Source of the DNA: Nitrosopumilus sp.
GTDB taxonomy: Archaea; Thermoproteota; Nitrososphaeria; Nitrososphaerales; Nitrosopumilaceae
Length of the DNA: 64,000 nucleotides
Assembly: GCA_965219345.1 (NCBI GenBank)
Contig: OZ244732.1
Span: 64,001-128,000 of the forward strand
Reading direction: 5' to 3'
The stretch's first letter is position 1, and each line of letters starts with the position of its first letter. The notes under the pieces are model-generated. The model searched no databases. It was given only the letters and a program-made list of their open reading frames with translations, and was not told where the DNA came from. Below, piece by piece: positions 4,179-30,956 of this stretch. Position numbers and translations under genes: made by a program.

Positions 4179-4209
4179 GATTATATTTTACCCAAGGAGA
4201 ATTTCTAAT

Positions 4210-6884: not shown

Positions 6885-6944
6885 GGTTCTCCCATACGAA
6901 ATCGTCTCTTATCCTACTGCGGGCCATTCTCAGTGTGCTTTGCT

Positions 6945-8033
6945 GAATCAGGACATTTCTGATTTGTCTTGCATCTTCTTATACTTTCTTTGCGTCAGCT
7001 CATGATTCTGTGTGCGGTATTCTTCCATGTTTGTTAGCATGTACCAATTATCTCAGGCATCTGCCTTGCAGCAGCTGCAGCTGCTGCAGCTGCTATCCTT
7101 GCCTTTTGTTTTCCTCTCCTTTTTGCAATTCTCAAGTAAAATGATTCCATCCTTGGATCAAATCGTATCGTAGTATTTGCAGCCTCCTCTACCTTGCATT
7201 GCGCAACCATGCAGAACCCCGTTTTGTTATTCCGCCTCCTTTTTGTGTTTTCCAGTCCCTGTGCGATGGTGCAAGTCCCGCATGAGACGAGTTTCTCTGC
7301 TGTTGCAAATCCGTTAATGTCAACTATCTCTGAGATTATTGTCAGTGCCGTGACATAACTTATTCCAGGGATTGTCATGACTAACCTTGTTCTTTCATCC
7401 TCGTTGCTAATTGTAGCAATTTTTGTCTCAAATGTGCCAATCTGTTTTTGATTCATATTGATATTTTCAAGATATGCATCCATTGCCATCCTGTCAACTT
7501 CGGTCAGATTGATTTCATGCAGCCATCCGTTCCTTTCTGTGAGAAGGTCTTTATTGTCGGTTGGGTGTAATCGTATTTTGCAAGTATTGCATAAATCATG
7601 TTTTTGTGTTTTGAGACACTTTGTACACGATTCAGTCTTGTTCTTGCCAGACTGCGCAGGTCCCGGTAGTATTTTTCTGGCACAAATGACTCATACACCA
7701 TCATGTCCGATCTTAGCAGGTCCGCCAATACGTCTGAATCAAGCTTGTCGTTTTTGAGTTTTGCCTGTGCTATTATTTGGTCTTTGCAGGGTGTGCAAGA
7801 ACGGTGTCAATGCCGTTATCCTCTAATGTGTCATGCAGTCTAATCCAATAGTTGGCAGTTGATTCACACACTGCCTGTATGTCTTTACCATATGTCTTTT
7901 TGATGTGTTTGATAAAACCCATTATTCCATGTGTGGTGTTCTCAAAGCTTGACTGTTCTAGCTTTTTTCTAGTATCTTTTTTTATTGTTGCAACGCAGTT
8001 TTTCTTATGAACGTCAATTCCCATGCTGATCAT
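6945..8033 (-). pseudogene. IS110 (DEDD) transposase pseudogene with several frameshifts
   Basis: Split across ORFs 7773-8084, 7504-7728 and 7034-7489. ATG at 8033 is preceded by AGGAGGTGA. The 3' end is approximate. Confidence 0.88.
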
Positions 8034-8217
8034 GTTATCACCTCCTTTCTGATCAAATTGCCTGATAAAGCGGAATGCTCCCATTTACCATCATCATCTG
8101 TGTGTGGTATTTTGTTTTCCGCTCGCTTTGAGTCAGTCTGTCAAACGCCCTTGTACATGGCAGTAACCCTTCGACTCTCAGGCCCAATAGTAACAATACA
8201 TCACAGGATATAGAAAA
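8034..8217 (-). ncRNA. Candidate IS110 bridge-RNA region (non-coding end upstream of the transposase)
   Basis: About 180-nt non-coding stretch between the subterminal inverted repeat and the transposase start, where IS110 bridge RNAs are encoded. Its structure was not computed. Confidence 0.4.
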
Positions 8218-8497: not shown

Positions 8498-8890
8498 TTA
8501 TAAAAAGTTATTACTCGAAATTTTTACTGATACTTGCATTTTGGATGATTGTTTTCCACTTGTTATCACCCCTGTCCTCAATTCCCGCCCTATCTGCCGG
8601 AGTATCGCCATCCAATCCGCGTGAGGTCCAATATAATTATGATATAACTTGATTCCCGTAATGGCTGGTGAATCATCTTTTTTTAATCCTCCAAAGATCT
8701 TCTCACGATCCCCGAACTCTCCGTTTAATCTTTCTTGGATATTGTTGTTTGCCACTTGATTTCTAAAATGAACTTCCTTGACATGTTTGCTTGGCTTGTG
8801 CAGAAAATTCTTTGGAGCATATTTTTTTTTTTTTTGAATGCATCGTTGTAAGCTGGCAATCCATCTGTGACAATAACTCCGGGAATACAT
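8498..8890 (-). pseudogene. DDE transposase C-terminal remnant (IS6/IS240-like)
   Basis: NNNIQERLNGEFGDREKIFGGLK...YHNYIGPH resembles the E-motif and YNxxRPH of IS6-type DDE enzymes. Disrupted at a T14 run (8822-8835). Confidence 0.65.
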
Positions 8891-9110: not shown

Positions 9111-9284
9111 GTACATACACACGCACACACGCACACACGCACACACGCACACACGCACACACGCACACACGCACACACGCACACACGCACACACGCACAC
9201 ACGCACACACGCACACACGCACACACGCACACACGCACACACGCACACACGCACACACGCACACACGCACACACGCACGCGCAC
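9111..9284. repeat. (GCACACAC)~20 microsatellite; uninterrupted alternating purine-pyrimidine tract
   Basis: Read directly from the sequence. It abuts the stop codon of the giant gene. Confidence 0.95.
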
Positions 9285-12200
9285 TATCCGACTATTGATT
9301 CCGCCCAGCCGCGCTCCATCAATGGCTGTACCGAGCGGTCAAGGAGGCAGGCAAGATCATCTCTCAGGTTCTTGACCATCGTAAAGCCCGGCTTGCATTC
9401 CATGTCGCCTTCAGATGCGCTGCGACTACTACTGGACTGGGACTGGGACTTTTTTGACGTATCGGATGCGTCGTCATCGTCATCATCATATGTCTTCTCG
9501 CCAACGCACTGTTTTATGCTGATGCTTTCGTTTCTAATGTTGCTGTCCCGTCCCGCTATGTCCGCCAGCAGTATGCCAAGGTATGTCTCGGAAGGCCCCA
9601 TGTGGGATGTGAATACCTTGCTGCCGGGTATTCTTTCATCGGATAGGCTGGCCTCGGCCAGGCCGCCAATGGAGGTTCTGACGGATACCGACAGCGTAGA
9701 CGAGTCATCACCGGTTATTATTCTGACTAGGCCCGTCTCACAGTTCCATGAAACGCCGTAAAGCTCAATGTCGGACAGGGGCTCTCCGCTAGGACTGACG
9801 CCAGTACGGCCGCTGCTACCGCCACCACCGCCACCACCGCCGCCGCCACCGCCGCCGCTTCTGCCGCTCTTTTCGGGCTTTCTTTCCGGTTCAGGTCTTG
9901 GATCCTCCGTATCATCCACAACGGGCGGTGCAATGTTGTTTGTAACCAGATCTGCCGCAAAGCTGGCAAGCGAGTTTGGCTGTGGGAATAGCGTAAATGG
10001 TTCGGGCAGCGCGTATTGGTATATGGCAGTGTTGTTACTGCCTACGACAAACATCTGCATTCCGTCAGCAGAGAAGGCTATGCCTAACGGGAAGATGTCT
10101 TGTGGAACTACTGAAAAAGAGCCGGCAAAGGTGGCAGTGGATACGGTAAAGGGGGCGGTTAGCGCGTACTCGTATACGGCATTATCATTGGAATCTACGA
10201 CAAACATCCTTGTTCCGTTGGCAGAGAAGGCCAGGCCTGCCGGGGATGATACCTGCGATGCCACTGAGAAGGAGCTGTCAAAGGTGACAGCTGCAGACAG
10301 GTCAAACGGCACGGTTAGCGCGTACTCGTATACGGCATTATCATTGGAATCTACGACAAACATCCTTGTTCCGTTGGCAGAGAAGGCCAGGCCTGCCGGG
10401 GATGATACCTGCGATGCCACTGAGAAGGAGCTGTCAAAGGTGACAGCTGCAGACAGGTCAAACGGCACGGTTAGCGCGTACTCGTATACGTTTTGATTAC
10501 TATCACCCAGAACAAACATCCTGGTACCGTTGGCAGAGAAGGCCAGGTCTACTGGAATCGTGTCCCGTGGCACTGAGGAAGAGTTGGTAAAGGTGGCGGA
10601 AGATACGTCAAAGGGGGGGGTTAGCGCGTACTCGTATACGTTTTGATCATCACCATCCAGAACAAACATCTTGGTACCGTTAGCAGAGAAGGCCAGGCCT
10701 GATAGGAGTGTGTCTTGTAAGGACACGGAGAAGGAGCCAACAAGGAAGGCAGAAGCGGCAGGAATGTCATCTATGCTGCCCGTGGTTTTGGCGTATGCCA
10801 GATGGATGACATCGTCATGATCAAGCGTATCGTTAAGGGTAAGGGTGACCGTGTCTGCGGCGGCCGTGATTGCAGTTACGGTTGGGTCTGCGGATATGGT
10901 GCCGGATAGCGCAAAGTCTCCGGGTGCCGCACCGTTTATTGTGACGTCTTCGGACAGTACGACGTCAATTGTCGATGTGCTGGTAGTTGCAATGGAGGAC
11001 ACGATTGGCGGCGCGTCATCGGTTGTGCCGGTAAAGGTCTGGCTCGCTGCCGGGTTTGATGCGGTGTCTATCACGGTGCCAAGTGAATCGGTGTAGGTTA
11101 TATCCGGAGTATCGGATGTGTCGGTGATGCCGGAGACGGCAAGGGTTATGGCGTTACCCGAGCCTGCGGGATTGGTGTTTGCTGTCACCGTTCCGGTGGA
11201 AAGGGTGAATCCTTCGCCGTTTGTGGTTGTGACGTCTATGTTCTCGCTGTACGTCAGGGTTATGCTGGTAGCCGAGGTCACGGCAGCTGCGGTGATTGTT
11301 GGCGGAATAGTATCTGGCAGCGCCGTGGTGCCGGCAAAGGTCTGGCTCGCTGCCGGGTTTGATGCGGTGTCAACCACGGTGCCAAGCGAATCGTCATAGG
11401 TTATAGATGGAGCATCGGATGCCGTGATGCCGGAGACGGTAAGCGTTATGGTGTTGCCCGAACTTGCGGGATCGGTGTTTGCCGTCACCGTTCCTCCGGT
11501 GGTGGAAAGGGTGAATCCTTGGCCGTCTGTGGTTGTGACGTCTATGTTCTCGCTGTACGTCAGGGTTATGCTGGTAGCCGAGGTCACGGCAGCTGCGGTG
11601 ATTTCCGGTGGAATAGTATCTGGCAGCGCCGTGGTGCCGGCAAAGGTCTGGTCTTCTGCCTGGTTTGATGCGGTGTCAACCACGGTGCCAAGCGAATCGT
11701 CATAGGTTATAGATGGAGCATCGGATGCCGTGATGCCGGAGACGGTAAGCGTTATGGTGTCGTCCGAACCGGCGGGATCGGTGTTTGCCGTCACTTCCCC
11801 GTCAGAGAGAGCAAATCCTGCGCCGTTTGTGGTTGTGACGTCTATGTTCTCGCTGTACGTCAGGACTATGCTGATAGCCGAGGTCACGGCAGCTGCGGTG
11901 ATTTCCGGTGGAATAGTATCTGGCGGCGCCGTGGTGCCGGTAAAGGTCTGGCTCGCTGCCGGGTTTGATGCGCTGTCTGTCACGGTGCCATCAGACTCGG
12001 TGTAAATCACGTTTGGAGCATCGGATGCTGTGATGCCGGAGACGGTAAGCGTTATGGTGTCGTCCGAACCGGCGGGATCGGTGTTTGCCGTCACTTCCCC
12101 GTCAGAGAGAGCAAATCCTGCGCCGTTTGTGGTTGTGACGTCTATGTTCTCGCTGTACGTCAGGACTATGCTGATAGCCGAGGTCACGGCAGCTGCGGTG

Positions 12201-15200
12201 ATTTCCGGTGGAATAGTATCTGGCAGCGCCGTGGTGCCGGCAAAGGTCTGGCTCGCTGCCGGGTTTGATGCGGTGTCAACCACGGTGCCAAGCGAATCGT
12301 CATAGGTTATAGATGGAGCATCGGATGCCGTGATGCCGGAGACGGTAAGCGTTATGGTGTTGCCCGAACTTGCGGGATCGGTGTTTGCCGTCACCGTTCC
12401 TCCGGTGGTGGAAAGGGTGAATCCTTGGCCGTCTGTGGTTGTGACGTCTATGTTCTCGCTGTACGTCAGGGTTATGCTGGTAGCCGAGGTCACGGCAGCT
12501 GCGGTGATTTCCGGTGGAATAGTATCTGGCAGCGAACGTGGTGCCGGCAAAGGTCTGGTCTTCTGCCTGGTTTGATGCGGTGTCAACCACGGTGCCAAGC
12601 GAATCGTCATAGGTTATAGATGGAGCATCGGATGCCGTGATGCCGGAGACGGTAAGCGTTATGGTGTCGTCCGAACCGGCGGGATCGGTGTTTGCCGTCA
12701 CTTCCCCGTCAGAGAGAGCAAATCCTGCGCCGTTTGTGGTTGTGACGTCTATGTTCTCGCTGTACGTCAGGACTATGCTGATAGCCGAGGTCACGGCAGC
12801 TGCGGTGATTTCCGGTGGAATAGTATCTGGCGGCGCCGTGGTGCCGGTAAAGGTCTGGCTCGCTGCCGGGTTTGATGCGCTGTCTGTCACGGTGCCATCA
12901 GACTCGGTGTAAATCACGTTTGGAGCATCGGATGCTGTGATGCCGGAGACGGTAAGCGTTATGGTGTCGTCCGAACCGGCGGGATCGGTGTTTGCCGTCA
13001 CTTCCCCGTCAGAGAGAGCAAATCCTGCGCCGTTTGTGGTTGTGACGTCTATGTTCTCGCTGTACGTCAGGACTATGCTGATAGCCGAGGTCACGGCAGC
13101 TGCGGTGATTTCCGGTGGAATAGTATCTGGCAGCGCCGTGGTGCCGGCAAAGGTCTGGCTCGCTGCCGGGTTTGATGCGGTGTCAACCACGGTGCCAAGC
13201 GAATCGTCATAGGTTATAGATGGAGCATCGGATGCCGTGATGCCGGAGACGGTAAGCGTTATGGTGTTGCCCGAACTTGCGGGATCGGTGTTTGCCGTCA
13301 CCGTTCCTCCGGTGGTGGAAAGGGTGAATCCTTGGCCGTCTGTGGTTGTGACGTCTATGTTCTCGCTGTACGTCAGGGTTATGCTGGTAGCCGAGGTCAC
13401 GGCAGCTGCGGTGATTTCCGGTGGAATAGTATCTGGCAGCGCCGTGGTGCCGGCAAAGGTCTGGTCTTCTGCCTGGTTTGATGCGGTGTCAACCACGGTG
13501 CCAAGCGAATCGTCATAGGTTATAGATGGAGCATCGGATGCCGTGAGATGCCGGATGCCGTGATGCCGGAGACGGTAAGCGTTATGGTGTCGTCCGAACC
13601 GGCGGGATCGGTGTTTGCCGTCACTTCCCCGTCAGAGAGAGCAAATCCTGCGCCGTTTGTGGTTGTGACGTCTATGTTCTCGCTGTACGTCAGGACTATG
13701 CTGATAGCCGAGGTCACGGCAGCTGCGGTGATTTCCGGTGGAATAGTATCTGGCGGCGCCGTGGTGCCGGTAAAGGTCTGGCTCGCTGCCGGGTTTGATG
13801 CGCTGTCTGTCACGGTGCCATCAGACTCGGTGTAAATCACGTTTGGAGCATCGGATGCTGTGATGCCGGAGACGGTAAGCGTTATGGTGTCGTCCGAACC
13901 GGCGGGATCGGTGTTTGCCGTCACTTCCCCGTCAGAGAGAGCAAATCCTGCGCCGTTTGTGGTTGTGACGTCTATGTTCTCGCTGTACGTCAGGACTATG
14001 CTGATAGCCGAGGTCACGGCAGCTGCGGTGATTTCCGGTGGAATAGTATCTGGCAGCGCCGTGGTGCCAGCAAAGGTCTGGCTCGCTGCCGGGTTTGATG
14101 CGGTGTCAACCACGGTGCCAAGCGAATCGTCATAGGTTATAGATGGAGTATCGGATGCCGTGATGCCGGAGACGGTAAGCGTTATGGTGTTGCCCGAACT
14201 TGCGGGATCGGTGTTTGCCGTCACCGTTCCTCCGGTGGTGGAAAGGGTGAATCCTTGGCCGTCTGTGGTTGTGACGTCTATGTTCTCGCTGTACGTCAGG
14301 GTTATGCTGGTAGCCGAGGTCACGGCAGCTGCGGTGATTTCCGGTGGGGTGGTATCTATTGGGGGATCAATTTCATCGGATGATGGTGCAATGTTGTTTG
14401 TGACCAACCTTGCATCAAAGCTGGCCAGTGAGTTTGGCTGCGTGGATAACGTAAATGGTTTGGGCAGTGTGTACTCGTTTACGTCACCATCAGCACCACC
14501 TACAACGAACATCTTTATTCCGTCACCAGAGAAGGCCAGGCCTGATGGGAATGTGTCTTGTGACACAGAGAAAGAGCCGGCATAGGTGACATTGGATACG
14601 TCAAAGGGGGCGGTTAGCGCGTACTCGTATACGGCATCGTTATAATTGCCTGTGACAAACATCCTTGTTCCGTCATTAGAGAAGGCCAAACCCTGTGGGA
14701 ATGTGTCTTGTGAGGATACTGGGAAGGAGTTGGTAAAGGAGACATTGGATATGTCAAAGGAGATGGCTAGTGTGTACTCGTATACGGCATCACTCTTAAG
14801 ATCTAGAACAAACATCCTTGTTCCGTCATCAGAGAAGGCCAGGCCTGATGGGAATGTGACTTGTGAGGATACTGAGATGAAGCGCCTTATGTCGGCAGTA
14901 GACAAGTCAAATGGGGTGGTTAGCGCGTACTCGTATACGGCATCGTCACCATCACCTACAGCGAACATCTTTGTTCCGTCATCAGAGAAGGCCAGGCCTG
15001 ATGGGAGCATGTCGTCAAAATACAGTAAGAAAGAGTTGGCAAAGGAGGAAGTCGATACGTCAAAGGGAGCGGATAATTCGTACTCGTATGCTGTAGCAGT
15101 AATACTGTCGGTGACAAACATCCTTGTTCCGTCATTGGAGAAGGCCAGGTCTGATGGATACGTTCCTTGTGAAGCCACCGAGAAAGAGTTGGTAAAGGAT

Positions 15201-18200
15201 GGAAGAAGAATGTCATCTATGCTGCCCGTGGTTTTGGCGTATGCCAGATGGATGACATCATTATTATCAAGTGTATCACTGAGGGCAAGGGTGACCGTGT
15301 CGGCAAGGATGGGGGTGATTCCAGTCACGGTCGGGTTTGTGGATATGGTGCCGGACAGCGCAAAGTCTCCGGGTGCTACAGAGCTGACTGTAACGTTTTC
15401 GGACAGTACGACGTCAATTGTTGATGCACTGGAAGTTTCGATAGAAGATACGGTTGGCGGCGCGTCATCGACTGTACGGTCAAAGGTCTGGTCCTCTGCC
15501 TGGTTTGATGCGCCGTCTGCCACGGTGCCATCAGATGCGATGTAAGTCACATCCGGTCTATCGGATGTGTTGGTAATGCCGGAGACCGTAAGGGTTATGG
15601 TGTCGTCCGAACCTTCGGGATCGGTGTTTGCCGTCACCGCTCCCCCGTCAGAGAGGCCAAATCCTGTGCCGTTCGTGGCGCTGACGTCAACGTTCTCGCT
15701 GTACGTCAGGGTTATGCTGGTAGCCGAGGTCATGGCAGCCGCGGTAATTGTTGGGGCATCGGTGTCTGGTGGAATGTTGTTTGTGACCAGAACTGCCACA
15801 AAGCTGGCAAGCGAGTTTGGCTGTGGTAACAAGTTAAATGGTTTGGGCAGTACGTACTCGTTTATGTCATCGTTAAAATCACCCAGGACAAACATCCTAG
15901 TTCCGTCGCCAGAGAAGGCCAGGCCTGATGGGGATCTGTCTTGTGAATCCACTGGGAAAGAGCCGACAAAAGCGGCATTGGATATGTCAAATGGGGCGGT
16001 TAGCGCGTACTCGTTTACGTCATTGCCAAGATCACCTATAACGAACATCCTAGTTCCGTCGCCAGAGAAGGCCAGGCCTGATGGGAATGTGTCTTGTGAG
16101 GATACTGAGAAAGAGTTAGCAAAGGAGGAAGTAGATACGTCAAATGGGGCGGTTAGCGCGTACTCGTTTACGTCATCGCCAAAATCACCTAGGACAAACA
16201 TCCTTGTTCCGTCACCAGAGAAGGCCAAGCCTGATGGGAATATGTCTTGTGAAGCCACTGAGAAAGAGTCGACAAAGGTGGCATTGGATATGTCAAATGG
16301 GGAGGCCAGTATGTACTCGTTTACGTCATCACCTAGAACAAACATCCTTGTTCCATCACCAGAGAAGGCCAAACCCTGTGGGAATGTGTCTTGTGAGGAT
16401 ACTGGGAAAGAGTCGACAAAGGAGGCATCGGATATGTCAAATGGGGCGGTTAGCGCGTACTCGTGTACGTTTTGACCACGGGAATCCAGAACAAACATCC
16501 TTGTTCCGTCATTGGAGAAGGCCAGGTCTGATGGATACGTTCCTTGTGAAGCCACCGAGAAAGAGTTGGCAAAGGATGGAAGAAGAATGTCATCTATGCT
16601 GCCCGTGGTTTTGGCGTATGCCAGATGGATGACATCATTATTATCAAGTGTATCACTGAGGGCAAGGGTGACCGTGTCGGCAAGGATGGGGGTGATTCCA
16701 GTCACGGTCGGGTTTGTGGATATGGTGCCGGACAGCGCAAAGTCTCCGGGTGCCGCATCGTTTACTATAACGTTTTCGGACAGCACGACGTCAATTGTTG
16801 ATGCACTGGAAATTTCGATAGAAGATACGGTTGGCGGGGCATCATCGACTGTACGGTCAAAGGTCTGGTCCTCTGCCAGGTTTAATGCGCTGTCTGTCAC
16901 GGAGCCATCAGATTTGGTGTAAGTCACATCCGGTCTATCGGATGTGTTGGTAATGCCGGAGACCGTAAGGGTTATGGTGTCGTCCGAACCTTCGGGATCG
17001 GTGTTTGCCGTCACCGCTCCCCCGTCAGAGAGGCCAAATCCTGTGCCGTTCGTGGCGCTGACGTCAACGTTCTCGCTGTACGTCAGGGTTATGCTGGTAG
17101 CCGAGGTCATGGCAGCCGCGGTAATTGTTGGGGCATCGGTGTCTGGTGGAATGTTGTTTGTGACCGACCTTGCATCAAAGCTGGCAAGCGAGTTTGGCTG
17201 CGTGGATAACGTAAATGGTTCGGGCAGTGTGTACTCGTTTATGTCAACACCATCATCACCTGAAACAAACATCTTTGTTCCGTCATCAGAGAAGGCTAGG
17301 CCTGTCGGGAATGTGTCTTGTGAGGATACTGAGAAGGAGTTGGCAAAGGTGGCATCGGATACGTCAAATGGGGAGGCCAGTATGTACTCGCTTACGTTTT
17401 GACCAAGGGAATCCAGAACAAACATCCTTGTTCCGTCATTGGAGAAGGTCAGATATTGTGGAGATGTGTCTTGCGATGCCACTGAGAAAGAGCCGACAAA
17501 GGATAAAGTGGATACGGTAAAGGGGACAGTTAATGTGTACTCGCTTACAGCATAGTCACTAGCATCTACGACAAACATCCTTGTTCCGTTATCAGAGAAG
17601 GCCAGGCCTGACGGGGCTGTTACTTGCGATGCTACTGAGAAAGAGCCGACAGAGATGGCAGCAGACAAGTCAAAGGGGGCGGCCAGTGCGTACTCGCTTA
17701 CGTTTTGACTATAATCACCTAGAACAAACATCTTTGTTCCGTCACCAGAGAAGGCCAAGTCTACTGGAATTGTGTCCTGTGGCACTGAGAAAGGGCCGGC
17801 ATAGGTGGCGGAAGATACGTCAAATGGGGCGGTTAGCGCGTACTCGTATACGGCATCGTCACCATCACTTAGAACAAACATCTTTGTTCCGTTATTGGAG
17901 AAGGCCAGACCTCGTGGGAATATGTTTTCTGAATCCACTGAGAAGGAGTCGACAAAGGATGCAGAAGCAGCAGAGATGTCATCTATGCTGCCCGTGGTTT
18001 TGGTGTATGCCAGATTGATGTCATCATCATCATCAAGCGTATCACTGAGGGCAAGGATAACCGTGTCGGCAAGGATGGGGGTGACTCCAGTCACGATCGG
18101 GTCTGTGGATATGGTGCCGGACAGCGCAAAGTCTCCGGGTGCCGCACCGTTTACCGTGACGTCTTCGGACAGCACGACGTGAATTGTCGATGTGCCGACA

Positions 18201-21200
18201 GTACCAATGAAGGACACGGTTGGGGGCGCGTCATCGACTGTGCGGTCAAAGGTCTGGTCTTCTGCCTGGTTTGATTCCGCGTCTGTCACGGTGCCAAGCG
18301 AATCGTCATAGGTTATAGATGGAGTATCGGATGTGTCGGTGATGCCGGAGACCGTAAGGGTTATGGTGTCGTCTGAACCTGCGGGATCGGTGTTTGCCGT
18401 CACCGTTCCTCCGGTGGAAAGGGCGAATCCTTGGCCGTTTGTGGCGCTGACGTCTATGTTCTCGCTGTACGTCAGGACTATCTCGGTAAGGGAGATCACG
18501 GCAGCTGCGATGATTGTTGGCGGAATGGTGTCCGGCGGCGCCGTGGTGCCGGTAAAGGTCTGGTCTTCTGCCGGGTTTGATGCGCTGTCTTCCACGTTGC
18601 CATCAGACTCGGTGTAAATCACGTTTGGAGCATCGGATGCTGTGATGCCGGAGACGGTAAGCGTTATGGTGTCGTCCGAACCGGCGGGATCGGTGTTTGC
18701 CGTCACTTCCCCGTCAGAGAGAGCAAATCCTGCGCCGTTTGTGGTGCTGACGTCTATGTTCTCGCTGTACGTCAGGACTATGCTGATAGCCGAGGTCACG
18801 GCAGCTGCGGTGATTTCCGGTGGAACGGTGTCCGGCAGCGGGGTGGTGCCGGTAAAGGTCTGGTCTTCTGCAGGGTTTGACGCGCTGTCTGTCACGGAGC
18901 CATCAGACTCGGTGTAAATCACGTTTGGAGCATCGGATGCTGCGGTAATGCCGGAGACGGTAAGGGTTATGGTGTTGCCCGAACCTGCGGGATCGGTGTT
19001 TGCCGTCACCGTTCCGGTGGAAAGGGTGAATCCTTCGCCGTTTGTGGTTATGACGTCTATGTTCTCGCTGTACGTCAGGACTATCTCGGTAAGGGAGATC
19101 ACGGCAGCTGCGATGATTGTTGGCGGGGTGGTATCATCTATTGGGGGATCAATGTCATCTGGTGGCGGTGTCGATGCAATGTTGTTTTTGACCGACATTG
19201 CCGCAAAGCTGGCAAGGGAGTTTGGCTGCGGAAGCAAAGTAAATGGCTTTGACAGCGTGTACTCGTTTACGTCACTGTCATCATTGCCTACGACAAACAT
19301 CTTTTTTCCGTCAGCAGAGAAGGCCAAACCTCGCGGTTTTGTATCTTGTGAGGTCACTGGGAAGGAGCTGGTAAAGGAGGAAGTGGATACGTCAAAGGGG
19401 GCGGATAGTGCGTACTCGTTTACGTCCTTGCCAGAGAGACCTATGACAAACATCTTTTTTCCGTCGTTGGAAAAGTCCAGACCCCATGGACGTGTATCTT
19501 GTGAGTTTACCGGGAAGGAGCTGTCAAAGGTGGCAGTGGATACGTCAAAGGGGGCGGTTAGCGTGTACCCGTATACGGCAATGTCATTATTACCTGTGAC
19601 GAACATCCTTGTTCCGTCAGCAGAGAAGGCCAAACCTCGCGGTTTTATATCTTGTGAGGTCACTGGGAAGGAGCTGTCAAAGGTGGCAGTGGATACGTCA
19701 AAGGGGGTGGATAGCGTGTACTCGTATACGGCACCGCCAAGATCACCTACGACAAACATCTTGGTTCCGTCGTTGGAGAAAGCTAGGCCTTGTGGACGTG
19801 TATCTTGTGAGGCCACTGGGAAAAAGTTGGCAAAGGTGGCAGTGGATACGTCAAATGGGGCGGTTAGCGTGTACTCGTGTATCATATTTTGATCCTTACC
19901 TACGACAAACATCTTTGTTCCGTTAGCAGAGAAGGCCAGGCCTAATGGAGACTGGTCCCTTAACACCACTGAGAAAGAGTCGACAAAGGACGGAGGAGCA
20001 GAAATGTTATCTATGCTGCCCGTGGTTCTGTTGTATGCCAGGTTGATGACATCATTGCTATCAAGCGTATCATTGAGGGTAAGGGTGACCGTGTCTGCAA
20101 CTGCCGTGATTCCAATCACGGCCGGGTCTGTGGATATGGTGCCGGACAGCGCAAAGTCTCCTGGTGCCGCATCGTTTATTGTGACGTCTTCGGACAGTAC
20201 GATATCAATTGCCAGTGTGCTGGCAGTACCGATGGAGGACACGATCAGCATTGTACTGGCAGTTGTACCGGCAAAGGTCTGGTTTGCTGCAGGGTTTGAC
20301 GCGCGGTCTGTCACGGTACCATCAGACTCGGTGTAAATCACGTTTGGAGCATCGGATATGGTGATGTTGGAGACGGTAAGCGTTATGGTGTTGTCTGAAC
20401 CTGCGGGATCGGTGTTTGCCGTCACTTGCCCGACGGAGAGGGTGAATCCTTGGCCGTTTGTGGTTGTGACGTCTATGTTCTCGCTGTACGTCAGGAGTAT
20501 CTCGGTAAGGAAGGTCACGGCAGCTGCGGTGATTGTTGGCGGGGTGGTGTCTGGTGGAATGTTGTTTATGACCGAATCTGCCGCAAAGCTTGCAAGCGAG
20601 TTTGGCTGTGGGAATAGCGTAAATGGCTTTGATAGCGTGTACTCGTTTATGTCATCACCATCATTGCCTACGACAAACATCCTAGTTCCGTCGCCAGAGA
20701 AGGCCAGGCCTTGCGGATTTTCGTCTTCTGATGCCACTGAGAAAGAGCTGACAGGGGCGGCAGTGGATACGTCAAAGGGGGAGGCCAGCGCGTACTCGTT
20801 TACGTCATCGCCAATAAGACCTACGACAAACATCCTAGTTCCGTCGCCAGAGAAGGCCAGGCCTAATGGGAATGCGTCTTGTGAGGCCACTGAGAAAGAG
20901 CTGTCAAAGGTGGCAGTAGATATGTCAAAGGGGACAATCAGTACGTACTCGTTTACTTTACCGCTACCAGTACCTACAACAAACATCTTTTTTCCGTCAT
21001 CAGAGAAGGCCAGGCCTGATGGGAATGCGTCTTGTGAGGCCACTGAGATGGAGTTGGCAAGGGTGGCATTGGATATGTCAAATGGGGTGGATAGCGCGTA
21101 CTCGTTTACCTTACTGTTAGAATCACCTACGACAAACATCCTAGTTCCGTCACCAGAGAAGGCCAGGCCTGATGGGAACCTGTCTTGTGAGGCCACTGAG

Positions 21201-24200
21201 ATGGAGTTGGCAAGGGTGGCATCGGATATGTCAAATGGGGCGGTTAGCGTGTACTCGTTTACGGCATTTCCACTAAGATCTAGAACAAACATCTTTGTTC
21301 CGTTATTGGAGAAGGCCAGGCCTGATGGATACGTTCCTTGTGAAGCCACTGAGAGGGAGTTGGTAAAGGACGTGAGAGCAAGAATGTCATCTATGCTGCC
21401 CGTGTCTTTGGCGTATGTCAGATTGATGTCATCATTACTATCAAGCATATCACTGAGGGCAAGGGTGACCGTGTCGGCAGCGGCCGTGATTCCAGTTACG
21501 ACCAAGTTTGTGGATATGGTGCCGGACAGCGCAAAGTCTTCGGGTGCCGCACCGTTTATTTCGACGTCTTCGGACAGCACGACGTCAATTGTTGATGCAC
21601 TGGAAGTTTCGATAGAAGATACGGTTGGCGGCGCGTCATCTACTGTACGGTCAAAGGTCTGGTCCTCTGCCTGGTTTGATGCGCCGTCTGCCACGGTGCC
21701 ATCAGATTCGATATAAGTCACATCCGGAGTATCGGATGTGTTGGTAATGCCGGAGACCGTAAGGGTTATGGTGTCGTCCGAACCTTCGGGATCGGTGTTT
21801 GCCGTCACCGCTCCCCCGTCAGAGAGGTCAAATCCTGCGCCGTCCGTGGCGCTGACGTCAACGTTCTCGCTGTACGTCAGGACTATGCTGGTAGTCGAGG
21901 TCACGGCAGCTGCGGTAATTGTTGGGGCAACGGTATCTGGTGGAATGTTGTTTTTGACCGGATCTGCCGCAAAGCTGGCAAGCGAGTTTGGCTGTGGTAA
22001 CAAGTTAAATGGTTTGGGCAGCACGTACTCGTTTATGTCATCGTTAAAATCACCCAAGACAAACATCCTTGTTCCGTTGCCAGAGAAGGCCAAGCCTGAT
22101 GGGGATCTGTCTTGTGAGGCCACTGGGAAAGAGTTGGCAAGGGTGACATTGGATACGTCAAATGGGGCGGCCAGCGTGTACTCGTTTACGGCATCGTTAA
22201 AATTACCTACAACGAACATCCTTGTTCCGTCGCCAGAGAAGGCCAGGTCTAGTGGGAGTGTGTCTTCTGATGCCACTGAGAAAGAGCCGACAAAGGAGGA
22301 AGTCGATACGTCAAAGGGGGCGGTTAGCGCGTACTCGTTTACGGCATCGCCAAGATCACCTACAACAAACATCTTTGTTCCGTTGTTGGAGAAGGCCAGG
22401 CCTGATGGGAATACGTCTTGTGAATCCACTGAGAAAGAGTCCACAAAGATGACATTGGATATGTCAAATGGGGCGGCCAGTATGTACTCGTTTACGTCAT
22501 TGCCTTCATCGCCTAGGACAAACATCCTAGTTCCGTCGCCAGAGAAGGCCAGACCTTGTGGGAGTGTGTCTTGTGAACCTACTGAGAAAGTGTTGACAAG
22601 GGTGACATTGGATACGTCAAATGGGGTGGATAGCGCGTACTCGTTTACGGCATCTCTATCAAGATCTAGAACAAACATCTTTTTTCCGTCAGCGGAGAAG
22701 GCCAGGCCTGATAGATCCGTTCCTTGTGGAGCCACTGAGAAGGAGCTGGCAAAGAATGAAAGAAGAATGTCATCTATGCTGCCCGTGGTTTTGGCGTATG
22801 CCAGATTGATGTCATCATTATTATCAAGTGTATCACTGAGGGCAAGGGTGACCGTGTCGGCAAGGATGGGGGTGATTCCAGTCACGGTCGGGTTTGTGGA
22901 TATGGTGCCGGACAGCGCAAAGTCTCCGGGTGCTACAGAGCTGACTGTAACGTTTTCGGACAGTACGACGTTAATTGTCGATGTGCTGGAAGTTTCGATA
23001 GAAGATACGGTTGGCGGCGCGTCATCTACTGTACGGTCAAAGGTCTGGTCTGCCGCCTGGTTTGATGCACTGTCTTCCACGGTGCCATCAGATTCGATAT
23101 AAGTCACATTCGGAGTATCGGATGTGTTGGTAATGCCGGAGACCGTAAGGGTTATGGTGTCGTCCGAACCTTCGGGATCGGTGTTTGCCGTCACTGCTCC
23201 CCCGTCAGAGAGGCCAAATCCTGCGCCGTCCGTGGTGTTGACGTCAACGTTCTCGCTGTACGTCAGGACTATGCTGGTAGCCGAGGTCACGGCAGCTGCG
23301 GTAATTGCTGGGGCATCGGTATCCGGCGGAATGTTGTTTGCAACCGGGGTTGCCACAAAGCTGGCAAGCGAGTTTGGCTGTGTGGATAACGTAAATGGTT
23401 CGGGCAGTGTGTACTCGTTTATGTCAACGCCATCATCACCTGAAACAAACATCTTTGTTCCGTCGCCAGAGAAGGCCAGGCCTGATGGGAATGCGTCTTG
23501 TGAGGATACTGAGAAGGAGTTGGCAGAGGTGACATTGGATATGTCAAAGGGGGCGGTTAGCGCGTACTCGTTTAATTTACTGTTAAAATTATCTAGAACA
23601 AACATCCTTGTTCCGTCATTGGAGAAGGCCAGACCTCGTGGGAATATGTCTTCTGAAGATACTGGGAAGGAGCCGGCAGAGGTGGCAGTAGACAAGTCAA
23701 AGGGGGCTGTCAGCGCGTACTCGCTTACAGCATAGTCACTAGCATCTACGACAAACATCTTTGTTCCGTTAGCAGAGAAGGCCAGGCCTGACGGGGCTGT
23801 TACTTGCGATGTTACTGAGAAAAAGCCGGCAGAGGTGGCAGCAGACAAGTCAAATGGGGCGGTTAGCGCGTACTCGTATACGTTTTGACTATCATCATCT
23901 AGAACAAACATCTTTTTTCCGTCACCAGAGAAGGCCAGGTCTACTGGAAGCGTGTCCTGTGGCACTGAGAAAGGGGCGGCATAGGTGGCGGAAGATACGT
24001 CAAATGGGGCGGCCAGCGTGTACTCGTATACGGCATCGTCACCATCACTTAGAACAAACATCTTTGTTCCGTCGTTGGAGAAGGCCAGGCCTGATGGAGC
24101 TAGGCCTTCTGAATCCACTGAGAAAGAGTCGACAAAGGATGCAGAAGCAGTAGAGATGTCATCTATGCTGCCCGTGTTTCTGGTGTATGCCAGGTTGATG

Positions 24201-27200
24201 TCATCATCATCATCAAGTGTGCCGCTAAGGGTGAGGATAAGCGTGTTTGTAGGTGTGGCAACTGGATTAATGATATTATCACATTCTGGCGTAGCAAAAC
24301 AAAGGGTGGGGATAAGCGTGTTTGTAGGTGTGGCAACAGCAGCAGCATTGATAATTCCAGTTACGACCGGGTTTGCAAATATGGTGCCAGACAGCACAAA
24401 GTCTCCTGGTGCCGCAGAGCTGACTGTAACGTTTTCGGACAGTATGACGTGAATTGTCGATGTGCCGACAGTACCAACGGAGGACACGGTTGGCGGCGCG
24501 TTATCGACTGTGCGGTCAAAGGTCTGGTCTGCCGCCTGGTTTGATGCACTGTCTTCCACGGTGCCAAGCGAATCGTCATAGGTTATAGATGGAGTATAGG
24601 ATGTGTCGGTAATGCCGGAGACGGTAAGGGTTATGGTGTCGTCTGAACCGGCGGGATCGGTGTTTGCCGTCACCGCTCCCCCGTCAGAGAGGCCAAATCC
24701 TGCGCCGTCCGTGGTGTTGACGTCAACGTTCTCGCTGTACGTCAGGACTATCTCGGTAAGGGAGGTCACGGCAGCCGCGGTGATCTCTGGCGGAACGGTA
24801 TCCGGCAGCGGGGTGGTGCCGGTAAAGGTCTGGCTCGCTGCAGGGTTTGATGCGCCGTCTGTCACGGAGCCATCAGACTCGGTGTAAATCACGTTTGGAG
24901 CATCGGATGCGGTGATGCCGGAGACGGTAAGTGTTATGGTGTTGCCCGAATTGTCGGGATCAGTATTTGCCGACACCGTTCCTCCGACAGATAGGGTGAA
25001 TCCTTCGCCGTTTGTGGTTGTGACGTCTATGTTCTCGCTGTACGTCAGGACTATCTCGGTAAGGGAGGTCACGGCAGCTGCGGTGATTGTTGGCGGGGCG
25101 GTGTCTGATGGAATGTTGTTTGTGACCAACATTGCCGCAAAGCTGGCAAGGGAGTTTGGCTGTTGGAATAGCGTAAATGGTTCAGATAGCGCGTACTGGT
25201 GTACGTTCTTGCTGTTATCACCCAAGACAAATATCCTCGTTCCGTCAGCAGAGAAGGCCAGGCCTGTCGGGGATTGGTCTTGTGAGGATACTGAGAAGGA
25301 GTTGGCAGAGGTGGCAGTGGACACGTCAAAGGGGGCGGTTAGTGCGTACTCGTATACGGCACCGTTATAACCACCCACAACAAACATCTTTGTTCCGTCA
25401 CCAGAGAAGGCCAGGCCTCGCGGGAGTATGTCTTCTGATGCCACGGAGAAAGAGTCGACAAAGGTGACATCCGATGTGCCGGCGACATTCGATACGTCAA
25501 AGGGGGCGGTTAGCGTGTACTCGTATACGGCACCGCTAAGATCACCTATAACGAACATCCTAGTTCCGTCGCCAGAGAAGGCCAGGTCTGCCGGTAATGT
25601 GTCTTGTGAGGATACTGAGAAAGAGTTAGCAGAGGTGGCAGTGGACACGTCAAAGGGGGTGGTTAGTGCGTACTCGTTTATGTTATTGTCGAAACTACCC
25701 ACAACAAACATCTTTGTTCCGTCAGCAGAGAAGGCCAGGCCTCGCGGGACTGTGTCTTGTGATGCCACTGAGAAAGAGTCGACAAAGGTAGCAGTGGACA
25801 CGTCAAAGGCGGCGGATAGTGTGTACTGGTGTACGGCATCGTTATCGCTACTAATACCAGTACTCACTACAAACATCCTTGTTCCGTCATTAGAGAAGGC
25901 CATGCCGGTTGATTCCGAGTCTTGTAGATCTACTGGGAAGGAGCTGAGAAGGGGCGGAAGAGGGATGTCATCTATGCTGCCCGTGTTTCTGGTGTATGCC
26001 AGGCTGATGGCATCATTGCTGTCAAGCGTATCGTCAAGGGCAAGGGCTACCGTGTTGTTTGTAACAGCGGTGATTCCGGTCACGGCCGGGTCTGTGGATA
26101 TGGTGCCGGACAGCGCAAAGTCTTCCGGTGCAGCACCGTTTATTGTGACGTTTTCGGACAGCACGATGTTAATTGTTGATGTGCTGGCAGTTGCAATGGA
26201 GGACACGGTTGGAGGCGCGTCATCGGTTGTGCCGGTAAAGGTCTGGCTTGCTGCCGAGGTTGATGCGGTGTCTGTCACGGTGCCGGATTCCGCAGAGTAG
26301 GTTATATCCGGCCTGTCGGATGTGTTGGTGATGCCGGAGACCGTAAGTGTTATGGTGTCTGCCGCACCGGCGGGATCAGAGTTTCCCGTCACTTCCCCGA
26401 CGGAGAGGGTGAATCCCGTGCCGTCTGTGGTTGTGACGTCTATGTTCTCGCTGTACGTCAGGACTATGCTGATAGCCGAGGTCACGGCAGCTGCGGTGAT
26501 TTCCGGTGGAACGGTATCCGGCAGCGGGGTGGTGCCGGTAAAGGTCTGGTCTTCTGCAGGGTTTGATGCGCCGTCTGTCACGGAGCCATCAGACTCGGTG
26601 TAAATCACGTTTGGAGCATCAGATTCGGTGATGCCGGAGACGGTAAGGGTTATGGTGTTGCCCGAACCGGCGGGATCGGTGTTTGCCGACACTGTTCCGG
26701 TGGAAAGGGTGAATCCTGCGCCGTTTATGGTTGTGACGTCTATGTTCTCGCTGTACGTCAGGACTATCTCGGTAAGGGAGGTCACGGTAGCTGCGGTGAT
26801 TGTTGGCGGGGTGGTGTCTGATGGAATGTTGTTTGTGACTGACATTGCCGCAAAGCTGGCAAGGGAGTTTGGCTGCTGGAATAGCGTAAATGGTTCAGAT
26901 AGCGCGTACTGGTGTACGTTCTCGCCGGAATTACCCAAGACAAATATCCTCGTTCCGTCAGCAGAGAAGGCCAGATCTGCCGGGGCTGTGTCTTGTGATC
27001 TCACTGGGAAAGAGTCGACAAAGGAGGCAGTGGACACGTCAAAGGGGGTGGTTAGTGTGTACTCGTTTATGTCATCGTCGAAACCACCTACGACAAACAT
27101 CTTTGTTCCGTCAGCAGAGAGGGCCAGGCCTCGCGGGAATATGTCTTGTGATGCCACTGGGAAAGAGTCGACAAAGGAGGCAGTGGACACGTCAAAGGGG

Positions 27201-28279
27201 GTGGTTAGTGTGTACTCGTTTATGTCATTGCCGGCATCGCCTACGACAAACATCTTTGTTCCGTCAGTAGAGAAGGCCAGGCCTCGCGGGGCTGTGTCTT
27301 GTGATGCCACTGGGAAAGAGTCGACAAAGGAGGCAGTGGACACGTCAAAGGCGGCGGATAGTGTGTACTCGTTTATGTCATTGCCGGCATCGCCTACGAC
27401 AAACATCTTTGTTCCGTCAGCAGAGAAGGCCAGGCCTCGCGGTATTCCGTCTTGTGATGCCACTGGGAAAGAGTCGACAAAGGAGGCAGTAGATACGTCA
27501 AAGGCGGTAGTTAGCGCGTACTGGTTTACGGCATCGTTATCGCCACTACCAGTACCCACTACAAACATCCTTGTTCCGTCATTAGAGAAGGCCAGGCCGG
27601 TTGGTTCCGAGTCTTGTAGACCTACTGGGAAGGAGCCGTCAAGGGGCGGAAGAGGGATGTCATCTATGCTGCCCGTGGTCTTGGTGTATGCCAGGAGGAT
27701 GGCATCATTGCTGTCAAGCGTATCGTCAAGGGCAAGGGCTACCGTGTTGTTTGTAACAGCGGTGATTCCGGTCACGGCCGGGTCTGTGGATATGGTGCTG
27801 GACAGCACAAAGTCTTCCGGTGCAGCATCGTTTATTGTGACGTTCTCGGACAGTACGATGTCAATTGCCGACATGTTGGAAGTTGCAATGGAGAACACGA
27901 TTGGCGGCGCGTCATCGGTTGTACCGGTAAAGGTCTGGTCTGCTGCCAGGTTGAACGCCGTACCTAACAAAGAGTCAGGTAAAGAGGTGTAGATTATATC
28001 CGGCCTGTCGGATGTTGTGATGCCGGAGACGGTAAGCGTTATGGTGTCTGCCGAACCTCCGGGATCGGTGTTTGCCGACACTTGCCCGACGGAGAGGGCG
28101 AATCCTGCGCCGTCCATGCTGTTGGCGTCTATGTTCTCGCTGTACGTCAGGACTATCTCGGTAGCCGAGGTTACAGAAGCTGCGATGATTGTCGGGTGCT
28201 CCGCCGCATGTGCCGGAACAATGGACAAAGAGGCCAACATCAGCGTGGAAATTAAAATAACAAAGGAAATTCTCTCCAT
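9284..28279 (-). CDS. Giant repetitive secreted/surface protein (about 6,300 aa): signal peptide, SwmB/Ig-like repeats, ten 5-repeat beta-propeller cassettes, Gly linker and thaumarchaeal C-terminal C...C...ERGW domain; interrupted by two frameshifts
   Basis: ORFs 13520-28297, 12300-13496 and 9284-12610 continue the same repeat series. The signal peptide is [25 protein letters not shown] (ATG at 28279). Repeats are GLAFSxDGTxMFV and [11 protein letters not shown]...LTYSEN...ITLTVSG. Confidence 0.88.
11270..14345. repeat. Near-identical tandem array with ~300-bp units and a ~906-bp higher-order period
   Basis: Equivalent positions fall at 11424, 12330, 13237 and 14160 (spacings 906, 907, 923). 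Confidence 0.9.
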
Positions 28280-28290
28280 CTCTTTATTTT

Positions 28291-28312
28291 CACACACACC
28301 CCCCCCCCCCCC
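28291..28312. repeat. (CA)4 plus C14 homopolymer (poly-G on the coding strand) about 20 bp upstream of the giant gene start
   Basis: cacacacacc cccccccccc cc, read directly from the sequence. Confidence 0.9.
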
Positions 28313-28342: not shown

Positions 28343-28454
28343 AGTTAATGCTCATATATATAAAATTCCAGCTGACAGGGTTGCCCCAAAGCATGCAACC
28401 TTCACATGACTATGCCAAGTTAATGCTCATATATATAAAATTCCAGCTGACAGG
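28343..28454 (-). promoter_or_regulatory. Perfect 37-bp direct repeat containing a TATA-box-like TTTTATATATAT; putative duplicated promoter of the giant gene
   Basis: AGTTAATGCTCATATATATAAAATTCCAGCTGACAGG occurs at 28343-28379 and 28418-28454. Confidence 0.6.
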
Positions 28455-28455
28455 A

Positions 28456-29088
28456 CTGCATGGAAATCAATCTGACCGAAGTTGACAGGATGGCAATGGA
28501 TGCATATCTTGAAAATATCAATATGAATCAAAAACAGACTGGCACATTTGAGACAAAAATTGCTACAATTAGCAACGAGGATGAAAGAACAAGGTTAGTC
28601 ATGACAATCCCTGGAATAAGTTATGTCACGGCACTGACAATAATCTCAGAGATAGTTGACATTAACGGATTTGCAACAGCAGAGAAACTCGTCTCATATG
28701 CGGGACTTGCACCATCGCACAGGGACAGTGGGGAAAACACAAAAAGGAGGCGGAATAACAAAACGGGGTTCTGCATGGTTGCGCAATGCAAGGTAGAGGA
28801 GGCTGCAAATACTACGATACGATTTGATCCAAAGATGGAATCATTTTACTTGAGAATTGCAAAAAGGAGAGGAAAACAAAAGGCAAGGATAGCAACAGCT
28901 GCTGCAAGGCAGATGCCTGAGATAATTGGTACATGCTAACAAACATGGAAGAATACCGCACACAGAATCATGAGCTGACGCAAAGAAAGTATAAGAAGAT
29001 GCAAGACAAATCAGAGATGTCCTGATTCAGCAAAGCACACTGAGAATGGCCCGCAGTAGGATAAGAGACGATTTCGTATGGGAGAACC
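28456..29088 (+). mobile_element. Truncated IS110 copy (3' half), inverted relative to the left copy
   Basis: Near-identical reverse complement of 6885-7522. Encodes SYAGLAPSHRDSG and is frameshifted. Confidence 0.92.
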
Positions 29089-29918: not shown

Positions 29919-30956
29919 TTATCGTCTAGATTTCTTTTTAGCTGCTTTCTTCTTTGCTGGTCTCTTTTTAGCTGCTTTCTTCTTTGCTGGTCTCTTTTTA
30001 GCTGCTTTCTTCTTTGCTGGTCTCTTTTTAGCTGCTTTCTTCTTTGCTGGTCTCTTTTTAGCTGCTTTCTTCTTTGCTGGTCTCTTTTTAGCTGCTTTCT
30101 TCTTTGCTGGTCTCTTTTTAGCTGCTTTCTTCTTTGCTGGTCTCTTTTTAGCTGCTTTCTTCTTTGCTGGTCTCTTTTTAGCTGCTTTCTTCTTTGCTGG
30201 TCTCTTTTTAGCTGCTTTCTTCTTTGCTGGTCTCTTTTTAGCTGCTTTCTTCTTTGCTGCAGCACGTTTCTTTGCAGCTGCAACTCTTTTAGCTGCTGCT
30301 CTTTTAGCTGCTTTACGTCTCTTCGCTAAAAGTTCTTGAAATTTTCCAGATACTTTTTCTAATGCTCTTTTAGTAGAATCTTCTGCTTTAGTTCGTCTTT
30401 CTAATTCTTTTACAAACTTTTCAGCAGACTTATGACTAGTTGCCATAGTTTCACGTAAAGATGGTTTTGATTGAGATTGTTTTTGAATTTTTGAAGTGAT
30501 TTTTGATTTAAAATTAGAATATTGAGCAACATCATCTGAAATCTTTTTTGCAGTTTTTTGCCTGCTTTTAATCTCAGAAACTAATTCTTGAACACGGTCA
30601 TTTAAAGATCGTAATCTAGTCTCTGCGTTCTGTTTTTCTTCGGGACCTTCTGAGAACTCTATCTCTTGTTCAGCCTGTTCGATTGCTTCTTTTTCTCGTG
30701 TCAGTCGTTCCTCAGCTGCCGCCACTAGTCTTCCAATGCTTTCTAATTGAGAGGTTTTTCGGGTAAGGATTTCAGATGTATCAGAGACATCTTCACGTTC
30801 AGATTCTATTTTTCTATCTATAGAATTGAGGCCTGAAGAAGAACGCCTTTCAATAGAACGGGTTTCTTTGAGTTCTTTTTCAGCTCTTTTCCTAAGCTTT
30901 GTTGCGTCCTGTTTCTTTTGACGTAGTTGAACTACTAATCTTTCTAATGATGCCAC
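29919..30956 (-). CDS. Coiled-coil protein with histone H1-like Lys/Ala/Pro tail
   Basis: Long heptad region followed by (KKKAAKKRPA)n. Confidence 0.85.
   Translation of the reverse strand: MASLERLVVQLRQKKQDATKLRKRAEKELKETRSIERRSSSGLNSIDRKIESEREDVSDTSEILTRKTSQLESIGRLVAAAEERLTREKEAIEQAEQEIEFSEGPEEKQNAETRLRSLNDRVQELVSEIKSRQKTAKKISDDVAQYSNFKSKITSKIQKQSQSKPSLRETMATSHKSAEKFVKELERRTKAEDSTKRALEKVSGKFQELLAKRRKAAKRAAAKRVAAAKKRAAAKKKAAKKRPAKKKAAKKRPAKKKAAKKRPAKKKAAKKRPAKKKAAKKRPAKKKAAKKRPAKKKAAKKRPAKKKAAKKRPAKKKAAKKRPAKKKAAKKRPAKKKAAKKKSRR
29933..30259. repeat. Perfect 30-bp tandem repeat, about 10.6 copies
   Basis: The unit gctgctttcttctttgctggtctcttttta repeats identically. Confidence 0.97.

Follow-up and report, generated by a model that had tools for sequence, protein, structure and literature searches.

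The window analysed here is a 64,000-nt stretch of a Nitrosopumilus sp. contig (OZ244732.1, positions 64,001 to 128,000). Its minus strand carries, between 9284 and 28297, a conceptual giant gene for a repeat protein in which ten immunoglobulin-like (Ig-like) domains are each interrupted by a five-bladed beta-propeller. The neighbouring PGK was 91-96% identical to Nitrosopumilus PGKs, which indicated that the host is Nitrosopumilus. The gene had been described in a sequence-only reading as a single open reading frame (ORF) of about 6,300 amino acids (aa); as assembled, it consists of three ORFs of 4925, 398 and 1108 aa which are split by a 17-nt and a 1-nt insertion. The start codon is either the ATG at 28279 (MERISF...) or an upstream GTG at 28297 and the stop codon is at 9284-9286. 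Reading through both indels gave approximately 6,331 aa from the GTG and 6,325 aa from the ATG. ORF1 (13520-28297, minus strand) is the database protein P0152 and encodes the signal peptide, modules 1-9 and 16 plain spacers. ORF2 (12300-13496, minus strand) lies in a frame different from that of ORF1 and encodes the three plain Ig-like spacers between the indels, while ORF3 (9284-12610, minus strand) returns to the ORF1 frame and encodes five spacers, module 10, a Gly-rich linker and the C-terminal domain.

The indels were located by comparing the DNA with sister copies of the same repeat block. Frameshift 1 (13536-13552, minus strand) is a 17-nt insertion which is an imperfect copy of the adjoining 15 nt, with ambiguous placement within the repeat. 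Frameshift 2 (about 12534-12537, minus strand) consists of one substitution and a 1-nt insertion, after which the ORF1 frame is regained because the two insertions sum to 18 nt. Both are found inside the middle of three tandem copies of a block of approximately 906-923 nt (11594-14357, minus strand; three Ig spacers each) which are 97.5-98.1% identical. The break belongs to the deposited assembly since the public protein set contains the 4925-aa product P0152. Together with the three assembled ORFs, this would be consistent with a decaying pseudogene in this strain, in which the 17-nt insertion is real, translation ends at 13520 and the downstream 1.4 kaa is not made; a 17-nt imperfect duplication is atypical for a base-calling error and a relative, P0153 (5263 aa), also ends abnormally. 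However, the frame is regained, and the stretch of about 1 kb between the indels consists of clean Ig-like spacers in their own frame that are 98.1% identical to the next copy, as would be expected if the event were very recent or if the triplicated 0.9-kb block had been misassembled. In addition, the relative P0151 is uninterrupted at 6732 aa, with nearly the same N-terminus and a match to the C-terminal 215 aa at E = 1.8e-115; therefore the window locus is one gene by descent. Overall, decay of the gene in this strain was considered a real but lesser possibility.

The interruption of Ig-like domains by a propeller block was found in 10/10 modules by motif search and alignment. The modules, nine in ORF1 and one in ORF3, were 358-392 aa in length and showed 60-79% identity to module 4. 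All are on the minus strand, at 26825-27916 (module 1), 25112-26224 (module 2), 23330-24505 (module 3), 21944-23026 (module 4), 20558-21640 (module 5), 19178-20260 (module 6), 17150-18235 (module 7), 15773-16846 (module 8), 14390-15469 (module 9) and 9932-11020 (module 10). Module 4, which was used for structural modelling, comprises an Ig N-part (residues 1-87), the propeller (about 91-340) and a closing strand (345-361). The Ig part of module 3 is extended by approximately 30 aa, which contain two Cys and repeat the 9-residue motif VATPTNTLI internally; no such insert is present in the other nine modules. Each propeller block contains five repeats, as had been predicted (50/50 blades, five per module, when cut at the blade core), and 40 of the 50 blades are exactly 51 aa long with the consensus AxFxxSFSVxSQDTxPxGLAFSxDGTRMFVxGxxxxxVNEYALxxPFDVST. 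The plain Ig-like spacers of about 100 aa between modules number 24 (LTYSEN type); most neighbouring modules are separated by one to three of them, and modules 9 and 10 by eleven.

A putative Sec signal peptide of 25 aa ending in AHA was read by eye from the translation at 28205-28279 (minus strand). The C-terminal 215 aa (9287-9931, minus strand) consist of an acidic and Pro-containing linker, a Gly run, a beta-rich region of about 100 aa, an Asp/Ser-rich linker and a two-Cys tail in which the expected C...C...LMERGW pattern is present. A marginal match to the NCBIfam WING-49 domain (NF058652) was identified at 9302-9406 (minus strand) with 22.9 bits against a curated cut-off of 22, which is 0.9 bits over; it aligns residues 176-210 of the C-terminal 215 aa with profile positions 13-48 of 49. 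The name 'WING-49' was not found in the literature search.

A scan of species-representative genomes with two short peptide patterns, which other carriers could escape, produced 11 loci; L001 belongs to one Nitrosopumilus sp. metagenome-assembled genome and L002-L011 to a second. The module hidden Markov model (HMM) gave 111 matches in these loci, of which 55 were full-length modules. Uninterrupted copies of the same Ig domain were also present (n=22, in L003, L005, L007, L008, L010 and L011), and in these 2-8 residues link GSIDD to NSLASF...NNI. In the modules, approximately 255 propeller residues occupy exactly this GSIDD / NSLASF junction. An alignment (A2) of 55 rows was composed of the 10 window modules, 35 locus modules picked at <88% identity from the 55, and 10 uninterrupted domains (10 of 11 representatives, one being dropped for a stop codon). 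Residues N347, S348, L349, S351, F352, A354 and V357 were invariant in 55/55 rows, the uninterrupted rows included.

An initial AlphaFold2 model from the ten window modules only showed a good propeller and a tail (residues 341-361) with a predicted local distance difference test (pLDDT) score of 25-34, which left the topology unresolved, and it was superseded. AlphaFold2 modelling of module 4 with A2 produced a mean pLDDT of 87.4 and a predicted template modelling (TM) score of 0.72. The Ig part scored 70-93, the 20 strands between residues 91 and 335 formed five four-stranded blades, and a closing strand was predicted after the propeller at 352-358 with pLDDT of about 88. Low confidence was confined to the two junctions, 86-88 and 344-347. 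On this model, strand 352-358 may complete the Ig sandwich begun before the propeller. The 22 uninterrupted copies, the invariant closing residues and the confident strand in the model thus agree with the earlier claim that the propeller lies inside the Ig-like domain. In the repeat register, an SFSV strand precedes the first GLAFS strand and none follows the last NEY strand, which suggests that the first strand may close the last blade and bring the propeller ends together, as an inserted domain needs.

In a HMMER search of 1.84 billion cluster representatives, 9,728 proteins matched at E <= 0.001, of which 3,236 also matched at E <= 1e-30. Most of the 9,728 matches covered residues of about 90-340 only, corresponding to the propeller. 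Domain layout was judged in 230 of the matching proteins; 218 had propeller-only matches and nine had at least one full nested module (P0151, P0153, P0001, P0154, P0152 which is window ORF1, P0006, P0014, P0171 and P0078). Module identity among the nested-module paralogues and relatives and loci L001-L011 was 57-94%, and module numbers and orders in the nested relatives differ from those of the window gene. The same C-terminal domain was found in P0151, P0154, P0001 and P0232, and a search for this domain in proteins of 295-2000 aa gave two matches, both close relatives. The 1,871,224-bp contig from which the window was taken encodes at least two paralogues, P0154 (5207 aa) and P0232 (1801 aa), that likewise carry this C-terminal domain. 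P0232 shares the signal peptide of the window gene, and in it a split Ig domain contains a single blade, apparently a product of recombination collapse between the first and last blades.

Comparison of L001 with the window modules showed that m1 corresponded to module 3 (0.77), m2 to module 4 (0.94), m3 to module 5 (0.88) and m7 to module 1 (0.82), while m4-m6 reached at most 0.67 to any window module. The 5' flanks are near-identical yet the module order differs, and therefore the strains carry reshuffled, partly different heads. The propellers of the window modules were also more diverged than the split Ig halves, in line with the proposed sequence-variable heads; mean pairwise identity was 0.61 for propellers and 0.75 for Ig halves, and the median ratio of nonsynonymous to synonymous substitution rates (dN/dS) was 0.71 and 0.50, respectively. 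The most variable blade columns fell in two loops, one linking the MFV and NEY strands and the other immediately preceding the GLAFS strand. Separately, a family locus in L007 (7301-17942) is present as many short ORFs with partial modules (Ig N-parts and propeller ends) and looks like a decayed family member.

Such variability could also be expected if the protein were not a specific adhesin but a coat or decoy on the cell surface. The long, fast-changing fibre would then protect the S-layer against viruses or grazers, with the propellers mainly as bulky, variable ornaments. Module order and content differ strongly between strains with a 97.6%-identical 5' flank, the gene is in a mobile-element-rich island, and the paralogue collapsed to one blade in the same genome suggests tolerance of gross change. 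This explanation was nevertheless judged rather unlikely, as the conserved cassette length (40/50 blades of 51 aa) and its recurrence in 9,728 cluster representatives are a better fit to a folded functional unit.

The contrast in GC content reported earlier was confirmed, with 0.50-0.58 across the giant gene (2-kb windows) and 0.30-0.37 in the host flanks, which contain ordinary housekeeping genes. GC content at third codon positions (GC3) was 0.564, 0.624 and 0.601 for ORF1, ORF2 and ORF3, respectively, compared to 0.242 in 27 host ORFs. The overall GC of ORF1 was 0.526 against 0.402 expected under host synonymous codon choice; amino-acid composition therefore explains the excess GC only in part. 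In the second Nitrosopumilus genome (L002-L011), many family members have near-native codon usage, with GC3 of 0.28-0.40 in the family genes and 0.19-0.30 in clearly host-like flanking ORFs. This comparison indicates that repetitiveness alone would not produce the GC3 seen in the window gene.

The giant gene is flanked on both sides by IS110 sequences. An IS110-family element was identified at 6885-8084 (minus strand) with the transposase in three ORFs (DEDD_Tnp_IS110 at 7773-8084 and 7504-7728, Transposase_20 at 7034-7489), and family membership was shown by PF01548 (45.4 bits) and PF02371 (34.5 and 68.4 bits). A partial inverted copy at 28463-29088 (plus strand) is 97-100% complementary to 6885-7516. 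The inverted copies enclose approximately 21 kb, and if they recombined, the entire giant gene could be turned around. Two AT-rich, TATA-like direct repeats of 42 nt (28343-28459, 95% identical) separate the start of the gene from the IS fragment; they are also present in L001 and are a possible promoter region. An 82%-identical IS110 relative was found 5' of the giant gene in L004. Comparison of the window flanks with L001-L011 by blastn and tblastx matched only the IS110 element and the 5' flank of the gene. L001 has the 5' flank (97.6% over 211 nt), IS junction and signal peptide in common with the window and a GC3 of 0.57, so the import would predate the split of the two strains.

Since the gene is in an IS110-flanked island with foreign codon usage, its recent acquisition is well supported, and the foreign GC3 and the GC above the host-codon expectation bear out the claim of horizontal acquisition. 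The donor could plausibly be a relative from the same archaeal family with a higher GC, because nested modules were found only in Nitrosopumilus-labelled genomes with the two peptide patterns. A thaumarchaeal donor, argued earlier from the C-terminal domain, is plausible at most; that domain was found only in close relatives and passes the WING-49 cut-off by 0.9 bits. High GC could instead be intrinsic to a native gene, arising from a composition rich in Thr, Ala, Ser, Gly, Asp and Pro and from GC-biased gene conversion among repeats. All family members have a GC of about 0.5 at the first and second codon positions, those in the second Nitrosopumilus genome reach 0.43-0.47 GC against 0.32-0.36 in their flanks, and composition alone raises the expected GC to 0.402. 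This explanation was found improbable, since the observed value is 0.526, family genes in the other genome that are just as repetitive have a GC3 of only 0.28-0.40 compared to 0.56-0.62 in the window gene, and IS110 remnants are present on both sides of the gene.

Other features in and around the island were also identified. A tRNA as integration site was rejected because the only tRNA in the window (58279-58353) is far from the island. The 8-nt unit ACACACGC is repeated perfectly in tandem about 20 times on the 3' side of the giant gene (9117-9276), and the array ends 7 nt from the stop codon; it may be a tract prone to slippage or belong to the end of the island. A 130-aa ORF at 8498-8890 (minus strand), in a zone of 0.37-0.41 GC between the IS110 element and the giant gene, is transposase-like by eye and had no Pfam match at E <= 0.001. 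The plus strand opposite the giant gene (14646-27992) holds many long ORFs (152-454 aa), and the family genes in L001-L011 are also accompanied by antisense ORFs; these look like by-products of repetitive GC-rich sequence and not genes. At 29919-30956 (minus strand), a 345-aa coiled-coil-like protein ends in about ten tandem Lys/Ala/Pro-rich decapeptides (AAKKRPAKKK type); the protein has a weak HC2 histone-H1-like match (19.8 vs 40 bits). Tetrapyrrole-synthesis genes are on both sides of the island region, with GlutR and ALAD on the left (2907-5190) and HemD, a methylase, porphobilinogen deaminase and an aminotransferase on the right (40871-44617). Finally, repeated ORFs with GC of 0.57-0.60 and GC3 up to 0.80 near the giant genes in L007 (3-964, minus strand) and L008 (5494-6800, minus strand; 14962-15612, plus strand) differ widely in composition from their host and are probably another foreign mobile element.

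A plain spacer matched Pfam SWM_repeat (PF13753) with 25.5 bits (E = 1.6e-5), below the gathering cut-off of 27 bits, and the N-parts of the split domains matched with 15-17.5 bits; the precomputed Pfam list of the whole ORF1 protein (P0152) includes PF13753. Pfam Big_5 (PF13205) was not reached, with 16.3 bits for the spacer and 14.3 bits for the module against a cut-off of 23.6. For the propeller, the Pfam scan suggested earlier showed no NHL or YVTN match at E <= 0.1, and the blade number of five departs from the six or seven of NHL, YVTN and WD40 propellers. A profile of alignment A1 had 0 matches with the PDB sequences. Foldseek searches of the PDB with both models matched generic propellers only (NHL, WD40, YVTN 1l0q, designed Pizza proteins and YjiK 3qqz) with TM of 0.35-0.72, the best target-normalised match being 3qqz (TMt 0.72), and no PDB entry resembling the nested Ig-propeller was found. 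A tethered array of ten catalytic domains, with propellers acting as lactonases or SGL-like hydrolases, would account for the matches to SGL (PF08450; module 3, 35.0 bits vs cut-off 26.3) and Lactonase (PF10282; module 1, 27.8 bits vs cut-off 21.7) and for relatives named lactonase, YvrE or YncE by their sources, but is very improbable: no full-length match to either family was obtained, the best SGL stretches cover about one blade (57/246 profile positions) and none passes alone, the module has five blades compared to seven in the Lactonase family (by its Pfam name) and six in SGL, solved structures gave no sequence match and only generic propeller folds, and the conserved residues recur identically in every blade, as structural residues do. 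Overall, the evidence weighs against both the enzyme array and an intrinsic origin of the high GC.

From the observed anatomy, insertion point, composition, flanks and relatives, we consider it probable that the gene encodes a giant Sec-secreted cell-surface fibre of Nitrosopumilus which is adhesin-like, multivalent and built on split domains. In this proposed fibre, an N-terminal Sec-type signal would precede a stalk made up of Ig-like beta-sandwich domains, 34 in total and akin to SWM_repeat and Big_5, of which ten would be split. The chain is predicted to exit each split sandwich after GSIDD, in the loop that leads to its last beta-strand, form a five-bladed beta-propeller of approximately 250 aa, re-enter with (QP)NSLASF...NNI and finish the sandwich; because the chain exits and re-enters the sandwich, the propeller would be held sideways off the stalk. 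The ten different heads may provide multivalent binding to particles, other cells or host matrix, and attachment to the cell envelope is probably provided by the C-terminal region with its Gly linker, beta-rich region and two-Cys tail of the WING-49 type. Secretion, envelope anchoring and ligand binding are parts of this proposal that we infer. The IS110-flanked island with foreign codon usage would reflect a recent acquisition, likely from a higher-GC relative, with modules reshuffled between strains.

Several observations weigh against this split-domain fibre. The gene is broken as assembled, so the strain may make only the 4925-aa product, which has neither module 10 nor the C-terminal domain. 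The A2 input holds uninterrupted domains, so that the better model leans to the split-domain answer. The dN/dS ratio is below 1 in both propellers and Ig halves and does not demonstrate diversifying selection. The only Pfam matches above cut-off are those to the enzyme-type propellers SGL and Lactonase. For anchoring, no transmembrane segment was found in the protein and no archaeal sorting signal or anchor motif was recognised; the C-terminal 215 aa matched 0 Pfam families, and an ESM Atlas search with the C-terminal 168 aa gave no usable match.

Attachment of ammonia-oxidising archaea to particles, to hosts or to one another is, to our knowledge, poorly understood. The locus offers ten defined units of approximately 360 aa which could be expressed and screened for ligands. 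The propeller family is very large (9,728 cluster representatives), has no solved relative by sequence and is matched only partially and by distant enzyme-type Pfam models. In addition, with its codon-usage contrast and IS110 flanks, the locus would serve as a clear case of the recent import of a giant surface gene by a streamlined marine archaeon. As a tentative wider view, Nitrosopumilus and its relatives might keep a recombining repertoire of split-Ig/propeller cassettes, in which strains and paralogues would exchange, lose or collapse whole modules, and IS110-flanked islands would carry complete genes from low-GC planktonic to higher-GC lineages or back. If true, this would be an archaeal cassette-shuffling adhesin system which reached split-domain display independently of the bacterial RTX adhesins, and the five-blade cassette would be a module exchanged between bacteria and archaea.

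The literature searches showed no description of propellers nested in Ig-like domains; supplements, which were outside these searches, might list such proteins. The portions available of papers on sponge Thaumarchaeota (PMC7848895, PMC6790972, PMC6697440) mention NHL, Ig, cadherin or S-layer proteins in general and not the nested architecture. A resemblance to giant proteins of Cenarchaeum symbiosum had also been proposed. The giants of C. symbiosum A (CENSYa_0849, 0917, 1154, 0842 and 0848; 3,560-5,278 aa) are from the same archaeal family and, like the window gene, carry many copies of a related propeller cassette. Six listed C. symbiosum proteins showed 33-39% identity over 65-72% of the module. 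The likeness is limited to the propeller because the HMM matches begin at about profile position 90, and nested SWM-type Ig halves were not detected in these giants with the module HMM. Presumably bacterial proteins with type IX secretion system (T9SS) tails (P0003, P0161 and P0008) were closer than Cenarchaeum, at 42-47% identity, and the cassette is widespread in bacteria; the proposed resemblance therefore stands for the propeller cassette and not for the Ig halves. No account of these propeller proteins was seen in the available portions of the literature naming CENSYa.

The five-blade cassette was also found at 40-56% identity in proteins with cadherin, Big_9 or T9SS-tail domains, with source names including, among others, Ekhidna, Reichenbachiella and Cyclobacteriaceae. 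In P0155, P0004, P0216 and P0229, a different Ig-type domain is by eye apparently complete before the propeller; the layout looks tandem and not nested because a D-x-S-G-N motif and the strand that follows it precede the propeller. The surface-layer protein of Methanosarcina mazei with a YVTN propeller and PKD domain (PDB 1l0q) is likewise an archaeal surface protein combining a propeller with an Ig-like domain (Foldseek query-normalised TM 0.40-0.41). It differs in that the seven-bladed propeller is in tandem with PKD and not nested, and it has no sequence-level match.

The closest architectural parallels are bacterial RTX adhesins with split domains, which in the available portions of PMC12077191 are described for Aeromonas hydrophila (AhLap), Vibrio cholerae (FrhA) and Marinomonas primoryensis (MpIBP). 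As far as these portions describe them, the RTX adhesins are, and the window protein is predicted to be, megadalton-scale fibres of tandem Ig-like extender domains, in which a globular domain exits an Ig-like sandwich, returns to complete it and projects off the fibre axis. Compared to the RTX adhesins of those portions, the window protein differs in that its inserted domain is a five-bladed propeller and its split domains number ten along the stalk, against one to three near the tip. Its chain would leave the sandwich ahead of the final strand; in the crystal structure of AhLap it leaves after the first. No RTX repeats were found by Pfam scan of the window protein and no type I secretion signal was recognised, with 0 families in the C-terminal 215 aa. 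On this comparison the predicted fibre, from an archaeal host, is not an RTX adhesin and would resemble these in the split-domain display. The display of binding domains from split Ig-like domains, so far described for bacterial RTX adhesins, would thus be used tenfold in one archaeal protein.

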